Positions 618 to 6,496 of a DNA stretch of 21,284 nucleotides are shown here, one piece after another (position 1 is the first letter of the stretch; each line of letters starts with the position of its first letter). The translations under genes were made by a program, and so were the position numbers. A model generated the notes under the pieces. That model saw only the letters and a program-made list of their open reading frames with translations, did no database searches and had not been told where the DNA came from. The stretch lies in the sequence record ON470581. One strand, 5' to 3'. The stretch comes from Escherichia phage vB_EcoS-606R9.

Positions 618-2075
618 ATGAATACATCTCATGTAAGAGTTGTTACTCATATGTGTGGGTTCCTGGTTTGGCTCTATAGTCTTTCAATGTTGCCACCAAT
701 GGTTGTAGCATTGTTTTATAAAGAAAAAAGCCTGTTCGTTTTCTTTATAACTTTCGTTATATTTTTTTGCATTGGTGGCGGAGCGTGGTATACAACTAAG
801 AAATCTGGCATTCAATTACGTACCCGTGATGGGTTTATTATAATTGTAATGTTTTGGATTTTGTTTTCTGTTATTAGTGCATTCCCTTTATGGATTGACT
901 CAGAACTTAATTTAACGTTCATTGATGCTCTGTTTGAAGGGGTTTCTGGAATAACAACAACAGGAGCAACTGTAATTGATGATGTTAGTTCATTACCTCG
1001 GGCATATTTGTACTATCGGTCACAGTTAAATTTTATAGGTGGTTTAGGAGTTATTGTTCTGGCGGTTGCTGTATTGCCATTATTGGGTATTGGTGGTGCA
1101 AAGCTTTATCAGTCAGAAATGCCGGGGCCATTTAAGGATGACAAACTCACTCCCCGCCTGGCCGATACGTCACGGACACTGTGGATAACTTATTCTTTAT
1201 TAGGTATTGCTTGTATTGTCTGTTATAGACTTGCAGGAATGCCTTTGTTTGATGCTATTTGTCACGGGATTTCCACAGTTTCGCTTGGTGGTTTCTCAAC
1301 TCATAGCGAGAGTATCGGATATTTTAATAACTATTTGGTTGAGCTGGTGGCTGGTTCTTTTTCCCTGCTATCGGCTTTCAACTTCACTCTTTGGTATATT
1401 GTTATTAGCAGGAAAACGATAAAACCTTTAATCAGAGATATTGAACTTCGTTTCTTTCTGTTAATAGCCTTAGGGGTGATCATTGTTACCTCTTTCCAGG
1501 TCTGGCATATAGGTATGTATGACTTGCATGGAAGTTTTATTCATTCGTTTTTTCTTGCCAGCTCCATGCTCACTGATAATGGTTTAGCTACGCAGGATTA
1601 TGCAAGTTGGCCCACGCACACGATAGTGTTTTTGCTGTTGTCAAGTTTCTTTGGGGGATGTATAGGTTCAACTTGTGGTGGAATTAAGTCACTTCGATTT
1701 CTTATACTTTTCAAACAAAGCAAACACGAGATAAATCAGCTTTCTCATCCCAGAGCGTTGTTGAGTGTAAATGTAGGAGGGAAGATAGTTACAGATCGTG
1801 TAATGAGGTCTGTATGGAGTTTCTTTTTTCTTTATACTCTCTTCACGGTGTTTTTTATACTGGTGTTAAATGGTATGGGATATGATTTTCTTACATCATT
1901 TGCAACAGTGGCTGCATGTATTAATAATATGGGATTAGGTTTTGGGGCTACTGCATCGTCATTCGGAGTGCTTAATGACATTGCAAAATGTTTAATGTGC
2001 ATAGCTATGATTCTTGGTCGCCTTGAAATTTATCCTGTTATTATATTGTTTTCAGGTTTTTTTTGGCGCTCCTAA
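618..2075 (+). CDS. trkG: TrkG-type potassium uptake membrane protein (TrkH/TrkG family), prophage moron
   Basis: 485 aa from ATG 618 (track ORF starts at TTG 600); strongly hydrophobic multi-pass protein with repeated glycine-rich P-loop-like segments (GVSGITTTGATV, IGGLGVIVLAV, GGFSTHS, NNMGLGFGA). Begins MNTSHVRVVTHMCGFLVW, which matches E. coli Rac-prophage TrkG from memory. Markedly AT-rich compared with the flanking phage genes. Confidence 0.85.
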   Translation: MNTSHVRVVTHMCGFLVWLYSLSMLPPMVVALFYKEKSLFVFFITFVIFFCIGGGAWYTTKKSGIQLRTRDGFIIIVMFWILFSVISAFPLWIDSELNLTFIDALFEGVSGITTTGATVIDDVSSLPRAYLYYRSQLNFIGGLGVIVLAVAVLPLLGIGGAKLYQSEMPGPFKDDKLTPRLADTSRTLWITYSLLGIACIVCYRLAGMPLFDAICHGISTVSLGGFSTHSESIGYFNNYLVELVAGSFSLLSAFNFTLWYIVISRKTIKPLIRDIELRFFLLIALGVIIVTSFQVWHIGMYDLHGSFIHSFFLASSMLTDNGLATQDYASWPTHTIVFLLLSSFFGGCIGSTCGGIKSLRFLILFKQSKHEINQLSHPRALLSVNVGGKIVTDRVMRSVWSFFFLYTLFTVFFILVLNGMGYDFLTSFATVAACINNMGLGFGATASSFGVLNDIAKCLMCIAMILGRLEIYPVIILFSGFFWRS

Positions 2076-2161
2076 TATATGGCTGATTTATAATTGTGAG
2101 TTTAATATTATGTTGACTCACTCATTGATCCAATACCTAACTTTACCAGCAACCCCTCCGT

Positions 2162-2196
2162 CCCCAGTAGCACTGGCTGCTGGGGTGCGTTTTATT
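2162..2196 (+). terminator. Putative intrinsic terminator downstream of trkG
   Basis: Inverted repeat CCCCAGTAGC / GCTGCTGGGG (about 10 bp stem with one G-U, 4-nt loop) followed by TGCGTTTTATT; sits at the AT-rich to GC-normal transition. Confidence 0.45.
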
Positions 2197-2212
2197 CATA
2201 AAGCAAGGCTGT

Positions 2213-3004
2213 ATGAGCGAGAAATTAAAGATAGTCTATCGCCCATTACAAGAATTGTCACCGTATGCGCACAACGCCAGGACGCACAGCCCTGAGCAGG
2301 TGGCACAACTGGTAGAAAGTATTAAGCAATTCGGCTGGACTAATCCGGTGCTGATTGACGAAAAGGGCGAAATTATTGCGGGTCACGGTCGTGTTATGGC
2401 GGCTGAAATGCTCAAAATGGATTCTGTTCCGGTCATTGTTCTGTCTGGCCTGACGGATGAGCAGAAAAAGGCGTACCGCCTGGCAGATAATCGCCTGCCG
2501 ATGAATGCTGGCTGGGATGAAGATCTGTTGCGGATGGAGCTGTCGGACCTAATCAATGCTGATTTTGATGTCTCCCTGACAGGCTTCATCCCGACAGAAA
2601 TTGATGAACTGTTGACGGATGTTTTGCCCGGTACAGGAAATGAGGAGGAGCCGTATACGACGAAAATTGATACGCCTGTTTATGAGCCGTCGGGCGGTAA
2701 ACCGGATATCAGTGAACTGTACGACGATACGAAAACTCAGGAGCTGATCAGCCGGATACGTTCGGCGTCCCTTGAGCCTGATATTGAGAAATTCCTCCTG
2801 TGTGCGGCAGAACGTCACACGGTGTTTAATTTCAGCAGAATTGCGGACTATTACGCTCACGCCCCCTCTGAAATTCAGTGTTTTTTCGAGGAGTCGGCGC
2901 TGGTGATCATTGATTATCAGCAGGCTATTGAAAATGGATTTGTCCGGATGACGCAGCGCATGGTGGAGATCATGCATGGTGGTGAGGAGGAGGAATATGC
3001 GTGA
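2213..3004 (+). CDS. ParB-like nuclease domain (ParB/Srx fold) protein
   Basis: N-terminal segment KIVYRPLQELSPYAHNARTHSPEQVAQLVESIKQFGWTNPVLIDEKGEIIAGHGRVMAA resembles the ParB N-terminal domain core, including the G-x-x-R motif; acidic C-terminal half. AAGG Shine-Dalgarno 6 nt upstream of the ATG. Lies between the moron and the packaging genes. Confidence 0.6.
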   Translation: MSEKLKIVYRPLQELSPYAHNARTHSPEQVAQLVESIKQFGWTNPVLIDEKGEIIAGHGRVMAAEMLKMDSVPVIVLSGLTDEQKKAYRLADNRLPMNAGWDEDLLRMELSDLINADFDVSLTGFIPTEIDELLTDVLPGTGNEEEPYTTKIDTPVYEPSGGKPDISELYDDTKTQELISRIRSASLEPDIEKFLLCAAERHTVFNFSRIADYYAHAPSEIQCFFEESALVIIDYQQAIENGFVRMTQRMVEIMHGGEEEEYA

Positions 3005-3929
3005 TGATTTTTGCGCCTTTATTCTGACTCACGGGCGACCGGACAAAGTTCTGACTTACCGGACGTTGCGTCGTGCTGGCTATACCGGGAAAATTTTTAT
3101 CGTTGTTGATGATGAAGATAAGACACGGAATCAGTACATGGCTGAATTTGGTGAACAGGTGCTGGTGTTTTCCAAAGCCGATATCGCCAGTCGTTTTGAC
3201 GAAGCCGATAATTTCTGTGACCGCCGCTCAATTTTTTACGCCCGTAATGCCTGTTTCGACCTGGCAAAACTGGTCGGGTGTAAATACTTCATTCAGCTCG
3301 ATGATGATTATCACGAGTTCCAGTTTCGGGTGGATCGCAACTATGACCAGGCCTATTTTCCGATAAGGAAACTGGATGCGATCCTTTCTGAAATGCTGGC
3401 GTACTACGAATCAATACCTGCTCTTTCCATCGCTATGTCGCAGGGCGGGGATTTTCTTGGTGACAATGGCGGCCATGCTTCGTGGGTGAAACGCAAGGCA
3501 ATGAACAGCTTTATCTGTTCGGTTGATCGACCGTTCTCATTCATGGGGCGCATTAACGAGGATGTGAATACGTACACGAATCTCGGTCGCTGTGGTGAAT
3601 TGTTTATGACGATCGGTGCTGTCCAGTTAGGGCAGAAACAGACGCAGAAAAACAGCGGCGGAATGACCGAGCTGTATCTGGATTCCGGAACCTACGTTAA
3701 AAGTTTTTACTCCGTCATGTATGCGCCGTCGTGCGTAAAAATCTCACTGATGGGTGCCAGCCATAAACGCATTCACCATCAGGTCACCTGGAACAACGCT
3801 GCAGTAAAAATCCTTCACGAAAAATACAGGAAGAAGACACCCTGCATATCAATGGGGGTGACAAATGATTCCGTATTCGAAAGTCGAGTCTCTGGCAGCG
3901 TGCCGGATGACTGCACAACAAATCGCTGA
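2997..3929 (+). CDS. Hypothetical protein with GT-A-like features (DxD-type motif); function unknown
   Basis: 310 aa from ATG 2997, which follows a strong GAGGAGGAGG Shine-Dalgarno embedded in the 3' end of the upstream gene (8-nt overlap, translational coupling); track ORF starts at 2976. Motifs IFIVVDDED and IQLDDDYHEF suggest a Rossmann-like nucleotide-sugar-binding fold, but this is motif-level only. Confidence 0.5.
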   Translation: MRDDFCAFILTHGRPDKVLTYRTLRRAGYTGKIFIVVDDEDKTRNQYMAEFGEQVLVFSKADIASRFDEADNFCDRRSIFYARNACFDLAKLVGCKYFIQLDDDYHEFQFRVDRNYDQAYFPIRKLDAILSEMLAYYESIPALSIAMSQGGDFLGDNGGHASWVKRKAMNSFICSVDRPFSFMGRINEDVNTYTNLGRCGELFMTIGAVQLGQKQTQKNSGGMTELYLDSGTYVKSFYSVMYAPSCVKISLMGASHKRIHHQVTWNNAAVKILHEKYRKKTPCISMGVTNDSVFESRVSGSVPDDCTTNR

Positions 3930-4116
3930 CGTTCTGGATGTTGATCTGAACCGACTGAAAGAAAATCGGGAAGCAATGACAGATTTTTATGCGGCCATCC
4001 GTAAGGGCAGAGCGAAAGGTGAAGCCGAGTTACGAGCGGCATTGTTTAAGCTTGCCAGAAAAGGGGATGCCTTTGCTCTGCGCGAACTACTCAGGGTGGA
4101 TAAAAATCAGGACTAA
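3907..4116 (+). CDS. Small hypothetical protein, possible helix-turn-helix / packaging-associated
   Basis: About 70 aa from ATG 3907 (track ORF from 3865); overlaps the 3' end of the upstream gene and ends 3 nt before the small terminase start; basic, helix-rich (AAIRKGRAKGEAELRAALFKLARKG). Start is uncertain. Confidence 0.35.
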   Translation: MTAQQIADVLDVDLNRLKENREAMTDFYAAIRKGRAKGEAELRAALFKLARKGDAFALRELLRVDKNQD

Positions 4117-4119
4117 CTG

Positions 4120-5214
4120 ATGAGCAGACCGGACTGGGGGGCGTTGCAGCAGGAGTATATTGCTGAATACACCCGCTCCGGTATATCTCCGGTGGCATGG
4201 TGTGAAGCAAGGGGACTGAATTACGCAACAGCCCGTCGTTACATCAAAAAAACTCCGAAAAATGCGCAGACAGAAATGTGCAAAACTGCGCAAAAAAGTG
4301 CGCAGAAAAAATCTGCGCAGACTGCACAAAAGCGGAACGAAAAATCTCAGGAAAAAAAGCCAGTATTCGATGCGGGCCTGAATGAGGGCGACGCGGAGGA
4401 ATTTTCGTTCTGTCCCGATGAATTCGGCATTTCTGACCAGCAGGCTAAGTTTGCGATGCTTGTTGCTCAGGGTAAAAAGCCGACAGAGGCGTACCGACTA
4501 GCCGGTTATGAGGGGCAAGGTGCGACAGCTAACAGCAACGCCAGTCGTATGCTTAGAAATGCCAGGGTTTTTCGCGCTATCAGCTACTTCCGCAATCAGT
4601 ACCAGAAACGCTATACCGCAGACCTGGATTTACTAGTGAGTCAGTTGATGGCTATTGTCCTGGCCGACCCCAATCAGCTTGCACAATTTCGCCGTGTTAA
4701 CTGCCGTTATTGCTGGGGCGAGAATCATCTCTACCAGTGGCGCGATATAGCAGAATTCGACAAGGCAGCGGCGCAGGCTTCCAGAGATGGCAAACCCGAA
4801 CCGGAATATGGAGGCCTCGGCTTTGTTGATAACGCCATACCCAATCCGGACTGCCCGAAGTGCTGCGGTGAGGGAACGGGACAGCTTTATATGGCTGATA
4901 CCACTCTGCTTGATGGGGATGCGCGGCAATTATATGCAGGGGCAAAATTCGGAAAATTCGGCGTTGAGATCCTGCTGGAGGATAAGGCTGCCGCCCGGCG
5001 TGAATTGTTGCGTTTGCTTTCTGCTGGCGGGGATTTATGTGCAGATAAGCGGCTACAGGAACTGGAAATTGAACGGCGCAGAATGGAAAACCAGAAGCTG
5101 CGCAAAGAGATCGAAACGGTGGAAGATAATGAACATCCCCAGCCTGTGGCGATCAATATTAATGTGGTTGATGCCAGAGTAAGGAGTGATGAAGATGATC
5201 TCTCCGACGCTTAA
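4120..5214 (+). CDS. Putative terminase small subunit (DNA-recognition component)
   Basis: Sits immediately upstream of, and overlaps, the large terminase gene; N-terminal HTH-like segment (GISPVAWCEARGLNYATARRYIKK), a Lys/Gln-rich low-complexity linker, Cys-rich segment (CRYCW...CPKCC), C-terminal coiled coil. Assigned by position and architecture. Confidence 0.5.
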   Translation: MSRPDWGALQQEYIAEYTRSGISPVAWCEARGLNYATARRYIKKTPKNAQTEMCKTAQKSAQKKSAQTAQKRNEKSQEKKPVFDAGLNEGDAEEFSFCPDEFGISDQQAKFAMLVAQGKKPTEAYRLAGYEGQGATANSNASRMLRNARVFRAISYFRNQYQKRYTADLDLLVSQLMAIVLADPNQLAQFRRVNCRYCWGENHLYQWRDIAEFDKAAAQASRDGKPEPEYGGLGFVDNAIPNPDCPKCCGEGTGQLYMADTTLLDGDARQLYAGAKFGKFGVEILLEDKAAARRELLRLLSAGGDLCADKRLQELEIERRRMENQKLRKEIETVEDNEHPQPVAININVVDARVRSDEDDLSDA

Positions 5215-6496
5215 TGTGCCTCAGGCGCGATTTCTTTCAATGCCCCATAAATTTAAAGCCTATATTGCTGGTTTTGGCTCGGGCAAAACATGGGTTGGGT
5301 GTGGCGGCATATGCAAGGGGATTTGGGAGCATCCAGGTATAAATCAGGGATATTTTGCGCCAACGTATCCCCAAATTCGCGATATTTTTTACCCTACAGT
5401 GGAAGAAGTTGCTGCTGACTGGGGATTGAACGTAAAAATTAATGAGGGAAATAAAGAGGTTCACTTTTATTACGGACGCCAGTATCGGGGAACCACTATC
5501 TGCAGATCGATGGAGAAGCCACAAACGATCGTCGGTTTCAAAATTGGTAATGCGTTGGTGGATGAACTGGACATTTTGCCGAAGGAAAAAGCCAGAACGG
5601 CGTGGCGCAAGATAATTGCGCGTATGCGTTATAAGATTGATGGACTTCGCAACGGTATTGACGTTACAACCACGCCGGAAGGATTCAAATTTGTCTACGA
5701 GCAGTTTGTTAAAGCCGTGCGTGAAAAAACAGAGCTGGCCTCACTGTATGGTCTGGTGCAGGCATCTACTTTCGATAATGAAAAGAACCTGCCAGCAGAT
5801 TACATTCCTTCGCTTCTTGAATCATACCCTCCAGAGCTGATTAAAGCCTATCTGCGAGGACAGTTTACTAACCTGACAAGTGGTACTGTTTACCATCAGT
5901 TTGACCGGAAACTGAATAATTGCGAAGAAGTGGAGCAGCCAGGGGAGCCGATTTATATTGGGATGGATTTTAACGTTGGAAAGATGGCGGGAATCGTCCA
6001 TGTGCTGCGTTTGGGGCTTCCATGTGCGGTAACTGAAATCATCAATGCCTACGATACGCCGGATATGATCCGCATCATTAAAGAACGCTTCTGGCTGTAT
6101 GATGGGAATGATTACCGGAAAGTGAGGGAAATTTATATTTATCCAGATGCTTCCGGGGATTCCAGAAAATCAAGTAACGCAAGTACGACGGATATAGCCC
6201 AGCTTAAGCAGGCTGGTTTTAACGTTGTGGTGAACAGCTCGAACCCGCCAGTAAAAGATCGCGTTAACTCAATGAATGCAATGTTCTGCAATGCCAATGG
6301 TGAGCGTCGCTATAAAGTTAATGTGAAGCGTTGCCCGTTATATGCCGAATCTCTGGAGCAACAGGTCTGGGATGAGAAGGGGGAGCCTGATAAAAAATCT
6401 GGCAATGATCACCCGAATGATGCCGGAGGTTATTTCATCGTTAAGCAATTCCCTATTGTCAAACCGACCGGAAGAGTCACATCACTTCGGATTTAA
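5195..6496 (+). CDS. Terminase large subunit (ATPase/nuclease)
   Basis: Walker A-like YIAGFGSGKT near the N-terminus and Walker B-like ALVDELD; sits between the putative small terminase and portal genes. ATG 5195 chosen for its spacing from AAGGAG at 5181-5186; alternative starts at 5186 and 5189. Confidence 0.8.
   Translation: MISPTLNVPQARFLSMPHKFKAYIAGFGSGKTWVGCGGICKGIWEHPGINQGYFAPTYPQIRDIFYPTVEEVAADWGLNVKINEGNKEVHFYYGRQYRGTTICRSMEKPQTIVGFKIGNALVDELDILPKEKARTAWRKIIARMRYKIDGLRNGIDVTTTPEGFKFVYEQFVKAVREKTELASLYGLVQASTFDNEKNLPADYIPSLLESYPPELIKAYLRGQFTNLTSGTVYHQFDRKLNNCEEVEQPGEPIYIGMDFNVGKMAGIVHVLRLGLPCAVTEIINAYDTPDMIRIIKERFWLYDGNDYRKVREIYIYPDASGDSRKSSNASTTDIAQLKQAGFNVVVNSSNPPVKDRVNSMNAMFCNANGERRYKVNVKRCPLYAESLEQQVWDEKGEPDKKSGNDHPNDAGGYFIVKQFPIVKPTGRVTSLRI

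Follow-up and report, generated by a model that had tools for sequence, protein, structure and literature searches.

Organisation of the locus

The window analysed here is a 21,284-nucleotide (nt) stretch of DNA from Escherichia phage vB_EcoS-606R9 (sequence record ON470581) and represents the late region of a Rac-like lambdoid prophage. Just upstream of the terminase genes it carries two overlapping genes, here called gene 1 and gene 2, which encode a ParB-like protein and a glycosyltransferase (GT) of the TAGT (TET-associated glycosyltransferase) family, and which we propose to be a two-protein glycosylation module. An initial annotation, made from the DNA letters and their translations, had noted both open reading frames (ORFs) together with the motifs IIAGHGRVMAA, IFIVVDDED and QLDDDYHEF, all of which were found where it had placed them. 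The features of the pair are as follows (aa, amino acids; NTP, nucleoside triphosphate).

2213..3004, + strand: gene 1, ParB-like partner protein, 263 aa; contains IIAGHGRVMAA
2213..2617, + strand: ParB/Srx N-terminal domain (NTP-binding type) of gene 1, aa 1-135; profile match and predicted fold
2654..2695, + strand: linker motif of gene 1, Y148-T-x-K-x-x-x-P155-x-Y157-E-P-x-G161
2985..2996, + strand: Shine-Dalgarno sequence of gene 2, GAGGAGGAGGAA, within the 3' end of gene 1
2997..3929, + strand: gene 2, TAGT-family GT-A glycosyltransferase, 310 aa; contains IFIVVDDED and QLDDDYHEF
3300..3308, + strand: DDD (D102-D104) of gene 2, the DxD nucleotide-sugar/metal motif; invariant in the clade

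The translational coupling that had been suggested for these genes was confirmed: the Shine-Dalgarno sequence of gene 2 lies inside gene 1, and the ATG of gene 2 (2997) precedes the TGA of gene 1 (3002-3004), giving an 8-nt overlap of start and stop. An alternative upstream start (ATG 2976, yielding 317 aa) was rejected in favour of ATG 2997 because homologues begin at MRDDF, the residues encoded from the latter position. No promoter-like site was found between a terminator-like hairpin at 2162-2185 and gene 1. Since the pair is translationally coupled and lacks a promoter of its own, it is likely to be expressed as part of the late operon, on one transcript with the terminase genes.

Gene 1 and gene 2 homologues co-occur across diverse viruses

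We surveyed 80 loci from IMG/VR together with 77 loci from GTDB contigs (one genome per species), scoring six-frame ORFs against hidden Markov models of the gene 1 and gene 2 proteins. The titles of these records include Bacteroides, Clostridia, Veillonella, Saccharibacteria, Planctomycetota, Acidobacteriota, Kiritimatiellae, an archaeal metagenome-assembled genome and a Virgibacillus plasmid. With the exception of one locus with a truncated TAGT (L161), all loci for which upstream sequence was available carry an ORF of the partner family, and in all but one further locus (L085, in which the partner lies 3.2 kb upstream) this ORF is found directly upstream of the TAGT gene and on the same strand. 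The two ORFs usually overlap, mostly by about 4-41 nt, values which were taken from the first possible start codons and represent upper bounds.

Homologues of the TAGT protein were also identified by tblastn in deposited phages, at ~39-47% identity in several unrelated viruses. These searches reached Nocardia phage NTR1, Lactobacillus gasseri phage phi jlb1, haloarchaeal virus HHTV-2, 191-kb Vibrio phages and most phages of Lactobacillus delbrueckii, including c5 (two others gave weaker or partial matches), as well as Porphyromonas phages at 27% identity. In NTR1, phi jlb1, HHTV-2, c5 and a Porphyromonas phage, a ParB-like gene of 245-285 aa lies immediately upstream of the TAGT gene and overlaps it, and the same pair is annotated in viruses of Nocardia, Lactobacillus, Porphyromonas and Haloarcula. 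Taken together, the survey and the searches placed the pair in ~190 loci, which span E. coli, Bacteroides, Clostridia, Lactobacillus, Nocardia and haloarchaeal viruses.

The association was also found when approached from the side of the partner. A reciprocal search, for which an alignment of the linker and C-terminal domain (C-domain) of the gene 1 family served as the query, recovered 80 loci, 51 of which were near-identical enterobacterial relatives and were left out of re-scoring. In the more divergent loci a TAGT gene was found downstream in every case (29/29), directly adjacent in 25. Among 1.84 billion proteins, the C-domain family comprises 1189 representatives at 50% identity; in the best 150 of these, the domain is nearly always found either at the C-terminus of proteins of 250-300 aa or alone in proteins of 130-200 aa. 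A natural fusion of the ParB-like protein with a TAGT was seen neither in the ~190 loci nor in these best 150 of the 1189 representatives. At the level of sequence, these data support the view that gene 1 and gene 2 form a strict cassette that would act as one functional unit.

In the literature, with the exception of the original TAGT paper (Iyer et al. 2013, NAR), which the search did not cover, we found no description of the strict ParB-like/TAGT pair or of its C-domain and no experiment on the pair, nor did we find a report linking Ld25A with ParB. The label "uncharacterised" given to this block at the outset is therefore only partly true: the family of the GT already has a name, and a study from 2026 described ParB-like activators of phage DNA-modifying enzymes (PMC13229309). 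Thus, the components of the cassette belong to known families, while the strict pair and the partner C-domain are new to the literature found.

Gene 2 encodes a TAGT-family GT-A glycosyltransferase

The gene 2 protein matches Pfam family PF20691 (TAGT) over residues 8-222 with 121.1 bits against a cut-off of 27.5 (E = 7.6e-35), and phrog_842, "beta-glucosyl-HMC-alpha-glucosyltransferase", with 1.1e-103. Its predicted structure shows the GT-A fold, and both the DxD motif and the acidic residues expected for catalysis are conserved; together with the PF20691 match this bears out the GT-A-type transferase first suggested by its motifs. The catalytic motifs are intact: besides D102-D104, two alignments of the gene 2 clade revealed R14, D41, R83, N187, D189, H260 and H261 as invariant and E188 as nearly so. 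The conserved core (aa 1-280, 2997-3836) has an isoelectric point (pI) of 8.6. It includes the most conserved stretch of the C-terminal part of the TAGT, aa 218-275 (3648-3821), with the pattern GGMTELY..GTYVKSFY..PSCV..RIHH. The tail that follows (aa 281-310, 3837-3929) is not conserved and is found in the E. coli version only, typical TAGT relatives being ~285-290 aa long. The family as a whole is large, comprising at least 8000 clusters (90% identity) below 1e-5, and both gene 1 and gene 2 have thousands of homologues.

The ParB-like partner is modular

The gene 1 protein (pI 4.5, net charge about -25; phrog_620 match at 8.5e-91) has three parts: a ParB/Srx N-terminal domain (N-domain), an acidic linker and a small helical C-domain. 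In E. coli genomes PGAP names gene 1 "ynaK, ParB/Srx family N-terminal domain-containing protein" and gene 2 "hypothetical protein"; in the Rac remnant of K-12, ynaK is presumably reduced to an N-terminal fragment (window equivalent 2213-2473). The literature on ynaK held nothing about DNA modification. In an overexpression screen from 2026, ynaK was reported to raise the minimum inhibitory concentration of six antibiotics (PMC12924614), an effect that is probably unrelated to its native function.

The N-domain matches the ParB_N model (PF02195) and is predicted to adopt the ParB/Srx fold, in agreement with the ParB/Srx-like N-terminus originally read from IIAGHGRVMAA. We compared it with the cytidine triphosphate (CTP) residues of MxParB (Q52, R54, S68, G73, E93, R95 and N127). 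Gene 1 keeps R23, S36, G41, R60 and N93, which correspond to CTP phosphate and base contacts of partition ParBs, and the positions of CTP hydrolysis are consistently substituted in its family (Q to N21, E to H58); the equivalent of R60 is lost in the partner from phage NTR1. No helix-turn-helix (HTH) DNA-binding domain was found in the predicted model or among the profile matches, and no ParA gene or repeats were found near gene 1 in the window, matches to parS-like or other repeats in 2050-4200 being short and at chance level. Lacking an HTH, a parS site and a ParA partner, gene 1 is not a partition ParB of the ParABS type. It differs in the same way from the CTP-dependent clamps in general (partition ParB, Noc, KorB and PadC), having no HTH/parS-binding domain, no ParA and an unrelated C-domain.

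The acidic linker spans aa ~137-165, and is modelled with a predicted local distance difference test (pLDDT) score below 50 at aa 137-152, rising only past ~aa 160. Every partner has its motif (YTxKxxxPxYEP), even where the ParB N-domain is missing, and Y148, P155 and Y157 are invariant. The C-domain (aa ~170-245) is helical and confidently modelled, with the signature FLxxAAxRH...IAxYYAH...SALVIID...NG. Across the family the enzyme is basic and the partner acidic (median pI 8.8 versus 4.7).

At least seven surveyed loci, one more that the reciprocal search had recovered (L227) and Vibrio phage pv27 have partners of ~130-140 aa that consist of the motif and C-domain only, and the cassettes that contain them often adjoin genes for DNA polymerase, sliding clamp, primase or helicase. 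A comparison of identities across 100 loci gave a consistent picture: TAGT identities correlate more closely with those of the C-domain (Mantel r 0.62, a value reached in 0 of 500 permutations) than with those of the N-domain (Mantel r 0.42), and the mean identities of TAGT, C-domain and N-domain are 0.50, 0.48 and 0.31, respectively. Judged by these comparisons, the constant partner of the TAGT is the linker motif with the C-domain, and the ParB N-domain looks like an exchangeable module.

Outside its own family, the N-domain finds its best matches in the N-termini of phage "DNA methyltransferase" proteins, at 45-55% identity. It matches phrog_498 (1e-50) and the N-terminus of the PADLOC MTase_II model (2e-38), and a ParB_N-methylase fusion occupies the same pre-terminase slot in Psychrobacter phage pOW20-A. 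In the phrog_498 fusions this domain is joined to a catalytic N6/N4 methyltransferase, whereas gene 1 combines it with a C-domain whose partner enzyme, a glycosyltransferase, is a separate protein. As far as sequence kinship can be a guide, this link to DNA methyltransferases supports a role for the pair in DNA modification, which is also the best fit among the candidate roles (DNA modification, anti-restriction, accessory packaging nuclease) first put forward for this block.

The cassette lies upstream of unrelated terminases

In ~77 of 84 diverse loci, the first large ORF downstream of the cassette, directly following it, encodes a terminase subunit. Pfam matches, with overlapping counts, were to Terminase_6N (33), Terminase_3 (24), lambda gpA-type (9), TerL_ATPase (5) and the small subunit type Terminase_2 (6); the other loci have a clamp, helicase or methylase gene at this position. 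TerL, the large terminase subunit gene, follows immediately after the pair in phage NTR1. The immediate upstream neighbours are mixed (AAA_25, SSB, Prim-Pol, NikA-like, HNH and others). A conserved third gene of the cassette was considered and rejected, as these upstream neighbours are heterogeneous and the small ORF that follows gene 2 in the window is lineage-specific.

This placement could mean that the pair is a packaging accessory, in which the ParB-like protein would mark, condense or nick the concatemer near cos/pac, comparable to the help that some terminases receive from HNH proteins, and the GT would be a secondary passenger. In the same slot, directly upstream of a lambda-like terminase, Escherichia phage vB_EcoM-473R2 carries a stand-alone 196-aa ParB_N protein, 61% identical to the gene 1 N-domain (L246:1-591); because this version comes without a C-domain and without a TAGT, ParB_N proteins may have a role of their own at this position. 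However, the cassette precedes at least four unrelated TerL families, of both cos and headful type, which argues against a specific interaction with terminase. The N-domain is absent from lineages in which the cassette lies beside polymerase, clamp or helicase genes, it is the GT, rather than the ParB N-domain, that is invariant and that co-evolves with the C-domain, and no nuclease family match or nuclease motif was found for the cassette proteins. We regard a role as packaging accessory as distinctly unlikely, and the accessory packaging nuclease that had been among the initial suggestions is likewise weakened, since several lineages do without the N-domain and have the cassette in replication modules.

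Flanking genes and the small ORF

The features on either side of the pair are as follows (TerS, small terminase subunit; TerL, large terminase subunit).

4-480: Rz/Rz1, upstream flank
600-2075: trkG, upstream flank; Pfam TrkH 5e-145
2162..2185, + strand: terminator-like hairpin with a 10-bp stem (7 GC), then TGCGTTTTAT; closes the low-GC trkG moron
3865..4116, + strand: small basic HTH protein, 83 aa, pI 9.3
4120..5214, + strand: TerS, Terminase_2
5186..6496, + strand: TerL, Terminase_6N/6C

Portal and further structural genes follow downstream of TerL. The trkG moron (600-2185), with its own terminator-like hairpin, sits between the lysis genes and the cassette. The stretch from the ParB-like gene to TerL is a chain of overlapping or abutting genes; the GTG start codon of TerL lies within TerS, the two genes sharing 29 nt (5186-5214).

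The small ORF overlaps the 3' end of gene 2 and stops 3 nt before the ATG of TerS (4120), as had been noted from the outset. Its size had been put at about 70 aa, close to the 69 aa that result from the PGAP start at 3907. Since aa 1-14 from ATG 3865 are conserved in relatives, however, the likely product is the 83-aa protein. In nearly all enterobacterial relatives it is full length (83-86 aa; one, L050, matches over the first 35 residues only) and always lies between the TAGT gene and one type of TerS. It resembles positions 145-218 of the phrog_309 small terminases and contains an HTH-like segment, TAQQIADVLDVDLNRL; weaker matches were to the N-termini of proteins of 125-167 aa downstream of the TAGT gene in three other loci. 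In relatives it begins with a 4-nt overlap on the TAGT gene. The longer overlap in the window is due to the E. coli-specific tail of gene 2 (aa 281-310), gene 2 reading on for ~22 codons where relatives end at ~288 aa. The proposal that all three genes form one functional unit thus stands for gene 1 and gene 2, given the survey, the reciprocal search and the co-variation, and falls for the small ORF, which travels with one enterobacterial TerS type and is absent from the cassette in other lineages. Judged by its sequence and position, the most plausible reading is a DNA-binding protein that belongs to the packaging module, outside the ParB-TAGT cassette.

The composition of the block bears on another possible role. 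A GT in a prophage might serve the lysogen, either by remodelling envelope glycans for superinfection exclusion, in the manner of TarP or Gtr-like enzymes, or by hypermodifying the DNA of invading phages. However, the GC content of the cassette (0.48-0.50) is that of the phage backbone, unlike that of trkG (0.35-0.39), and the pair follows a terminator-like hairpin without a promoter of its own. Furthermore, no membrane segment and no Gtr-type partner genes were found, gene 2 had no match among the PADLOC defence-system models, and an archaeal virus, a large Vibrio phage and c5 (for which no integrase or repressor is annotated) carry the cassette as well. Such a cell-surface or defence role is, in our estimate, the least probable of the explanations considered.

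The 2.1-kb block is shared at 99.7-100% identity with nine deposited E. coli and Salmonella phage records. Of 5426 complete E. coli genomes, 1607 have prophage sequence that matches it, 867 of them over at least 80% of its length; in the other ~740 less than 80% of the block is covered. In five chimeric proteins (P0026, P0030, P0031, P0036 and P0045) the TAGT is joined to tail-fibre, tail-collar or tail-fibre-assembly domains, the TAGT share being ~75% or more (99% in P0030), an arrangement consistent with Rac-type internal deletions that remove packaging and head genes. The prophage of E. coli SE11 also encodes, outside the window, a gene with a DUF262 domain (L001:7956-9638). As DUF262 is a domain of the GmrSD/BrxU type IV restriction enzymes, which attack glycosylated DNA, this is an odd companion for a putative DNA glycosyltransferase.

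Candidate acceptors and donors

Taking family, fold, co-occurrence and position together, we propose that the proteins of gene 1 and gene 2 depend on each other as a glycosylation module whose most likely target is phage DNA, a reading to which we assign a probability of about 0.5. Gene 2 would in this case transfer a sugar to DNA.

Several observations weigh against DNA as the acceptor. The annotations of the full Rac-like prophage of SE11 and of the 31.8-kb phage c5 contain no TET/JBP dioxygenase, no thymidylate-synthase-like hydroxymethylase and no C5-methyltransferase, and none of these enzymes was found among the 84 downstream and 84 upstream neighbours scanned. The TET/JBP or hydroxymethyl-pyrimidine neighbourhood that marks the TAGT family is thus absent here, and, as no hydroxylase or hydroxymethylase was found, the usual acceptor (5-hydroxymethylcytosine (5hmC), 5-hydroxymethyluracil (5hmU) or glucosyl-hmC) appears to be missing. 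We know of no GT-A enzyme that glycosylates canonical DNA. Gene 1 is strongly acidic and has no DNA-binding domain. In the AlphaFold2 model of gene 2, aa 218-275 have a pLDDT below 50 despite a good alignment; this segment may need the partner, DNA or the donor in order to fold. The T6 enzyme (YP_010067197), a family member that acts on DNA, is only ~16% identical to the gene 2 clade, and the profile-sequence hhalign comparison was not significant. Finally, GREB1, also a member of the TAGT family, is reported to O-GlcNAcylate a protein (PMC7968844).

The GREB1 precedent and the lack of a DNA acceptor pathway in the SE11 prophage and c5 would fit a module that glycosylates protein. The TAGT would then modify the Y or T residues of the partner linker, in a priming reaction like that of glycogenin, or a virion, terminase or host protein, and the ParB-like protein would be substrate or adaptor, not a DNA loader. 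Glycogenin and protein-modifying GT-A enzymes are among the fold matches of gene 2, and Y148 and Y157 are invariant within a low-confidence acidic linker, even in C-domain-only partners. Against this, the closest relatives of the N-domain are parts of DNA methyltransferases, the cassette is found in packaging or replication modules of bacterial and archaeal viruses with unrelated virion proteins, most characterised TAGT members act on DNA, and the enzyme is basic. We therefore hold protein glycosylation to be unlikely, if still worth weighing.

In a classic TAGT role, gene 2 would act on a hydroxymethylated base that other genes outside the locus or the host provide, either glycosylating it or extending it by a second sugar. 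E. coli DNA, to our knowledge, has no hydroxymethyl bases, and the SE11 prophage, c5 and the scanned neighbours lack a hydroxymethylase or 5mYOX gene, as described above. The T2/T6 member of the family does act in this way, adding a second glucose onto alpha-glucosyl-5hmC (PMC13216743, PMC13390438), and one locus (L112, 2970-3845), in which a second, divergent TAGT paralogue precedes a C-domain-only partner, between PolA and DnaN-like genes, suggests sequential sugar addition. We consider this role very unlikely for the pair.

If DNA is the acceptor, a sugar or sugar-like group might be attached directly, without a hydroxymethyl handle, to a canonical base, to the backbone or to DNA ends, a proposal that is less likely than not but has a substantial chance of being right. 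As for the donor, four IMG/VR loci (L219 at 2942-3895, L225, L232 and L235) carry between the pair a gene with His_Phos_1 and a TagD/RfaE-II-like cytidylyltransferase-type domain, and in a further locus (L223, 3578-5260) this His-phosphatase/nucleotidyltransferase gene is apparently fused to the partner, which suggests a custom nucleotide-activated donor. In addition, the TAGT of L085 (6001-7719) is fused to a C-terminal class-I S-adenosylmethionine (SAM) methyltransferase domain. Accessory donor or tailoring genes, a second TAGT and fusions of this kind are typical of glycan-building clusters.

Discussion

In the model of a DNA-glycosylating module, gene 2 would be an active GT-A enzyme, supplied with its nucleotide-activated donor by the pool of the host. 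Gene 1 would bind the basic TAGT through its linker motif and acidic C-domain, and the N-domain, where present, would bind nucleotide and load or hold the complex on double-stranded DNA (dsDNA). Made from the late transcript with the terminase, the pair would modify replicated DNA before or during packaging, and glycosylation of the DNA would probably blunt host nucleases.

Each half of this model has a counterpart in a known system. Gene 2 and the beta-glucosyl-HMC-alpha-glucosyltransferase of T2/T6 have PF20691, phrog_842 and the GT-A fold in common, and the R, DD(D), (E)D and GG positions of the T6 enzyme align with those of gene 2; a tblastn search with the homologue from Aeromonas phage 65 did not reach T2 or T6. 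The T6 gene adjoins a deoxycytidine monophosphate (dCMP) hydroxymethylase gene, whereas the locus of gene 2 has no hmC pathway, and gene 2 has an obligate ParB-like partner where T-even phages have none. A second point of reference is given by the GT-A enzymes of phage clusters with C5-methyltransferases and 5mYOX (TET) dioxygenases, which glycosylate 5hmC, resemble the base-J glucosyltransferase JGT, act on DNA post-replicatively and often have ParB and terminase genes nearby (10.1101/2023.12.21.572611; PMC8256090). By their published description, these enzymes and JGT have the motif set R...DDD...ED[Y/F] in common with gene 2. They use the hydroxyl of 5hmC or 5hmU provided by a neighbouring dioxygenase, whereas the cassette has neither a dioxygenase nor a methyltransferase.

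The closest parallel to gene 1 is ParB176, which is required for the thymine dioxygenase 5mYOX176 to act on dsDNA, one of a subclass of these dioxygenases that depend on phage ParB-like proteins (PNAS 2026, PMC13229309). The dioxygenase has been proposed to sit between the two ParB domains, and deletion of the nucleotide-binding domain (NBD) abolished ParB176 function (PMC13229309). ParB176 and gene 1 both have a ParB N-domain, nucleotide-binding in ParB176 and putatively so in gene 1, an unstructured linker and a C-domain without a DNA-binding domain, along with common N-x-R, S and GxxR positions, and both lie beside a DNA-modifying enzyme, or in the case of gene 1 a putative one, in phage late or packaging regions. 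Gene 1 therefore has the architecture, and the adjacency to its client, of the 5mYOX-associated ParBs. The two differ in that the client of ParB176 is an iron/2-oxoglutarate (Fe/2OG) dioxygenase and that of gene 1 a glycosyltransferase, and in that ParB176 needs its NBD whereas the N-domain of the gene 1 type is dispensable in some lineages. The ParB-like helper principle may thus extend from dioxygenases to glycosyltransferases, with the linker motif and C-domain as the minimal adaptor.

Parts of this association have been glimpsed before. ParB genes near phage GT and 5mYOX genes have already been noted (10.1101/2023.12.21.572611; PMC8256090), hundreds of phage genomes are known with "solitary" TAGT genes of undefined function (PMC13216743), and ~65% of GT-containing contigs were set aside in one survey, no hydroxylase being nearby (10.1101/2023.12.21.572611). 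Our data show that a large part of this dark matter of solitary TAGTs is a single strict two-gene module with a recognisable partner domain, and the question of what TAGTs do is now approachable in a tractable E. coli system.

Lambdoid E. coli phages are treated in textbooks as having chemically ordinary DNA. If gene 2 acts on DNA, this would not hold for the phages that carry it, with consequences for restriction, CRISPR and the sequencing of induced phage DNA. If handle-free glycosylation of DNA proves true, it would be a new chemistry among DNA modifications. Lambdoid prophages in about one in six complete E. coli genomes would have it, as would viruses of haloarchaea and of many bacterial phyla, and it would be through the ParB-like partner that a GT-A enzyme reaches duplex DNA.

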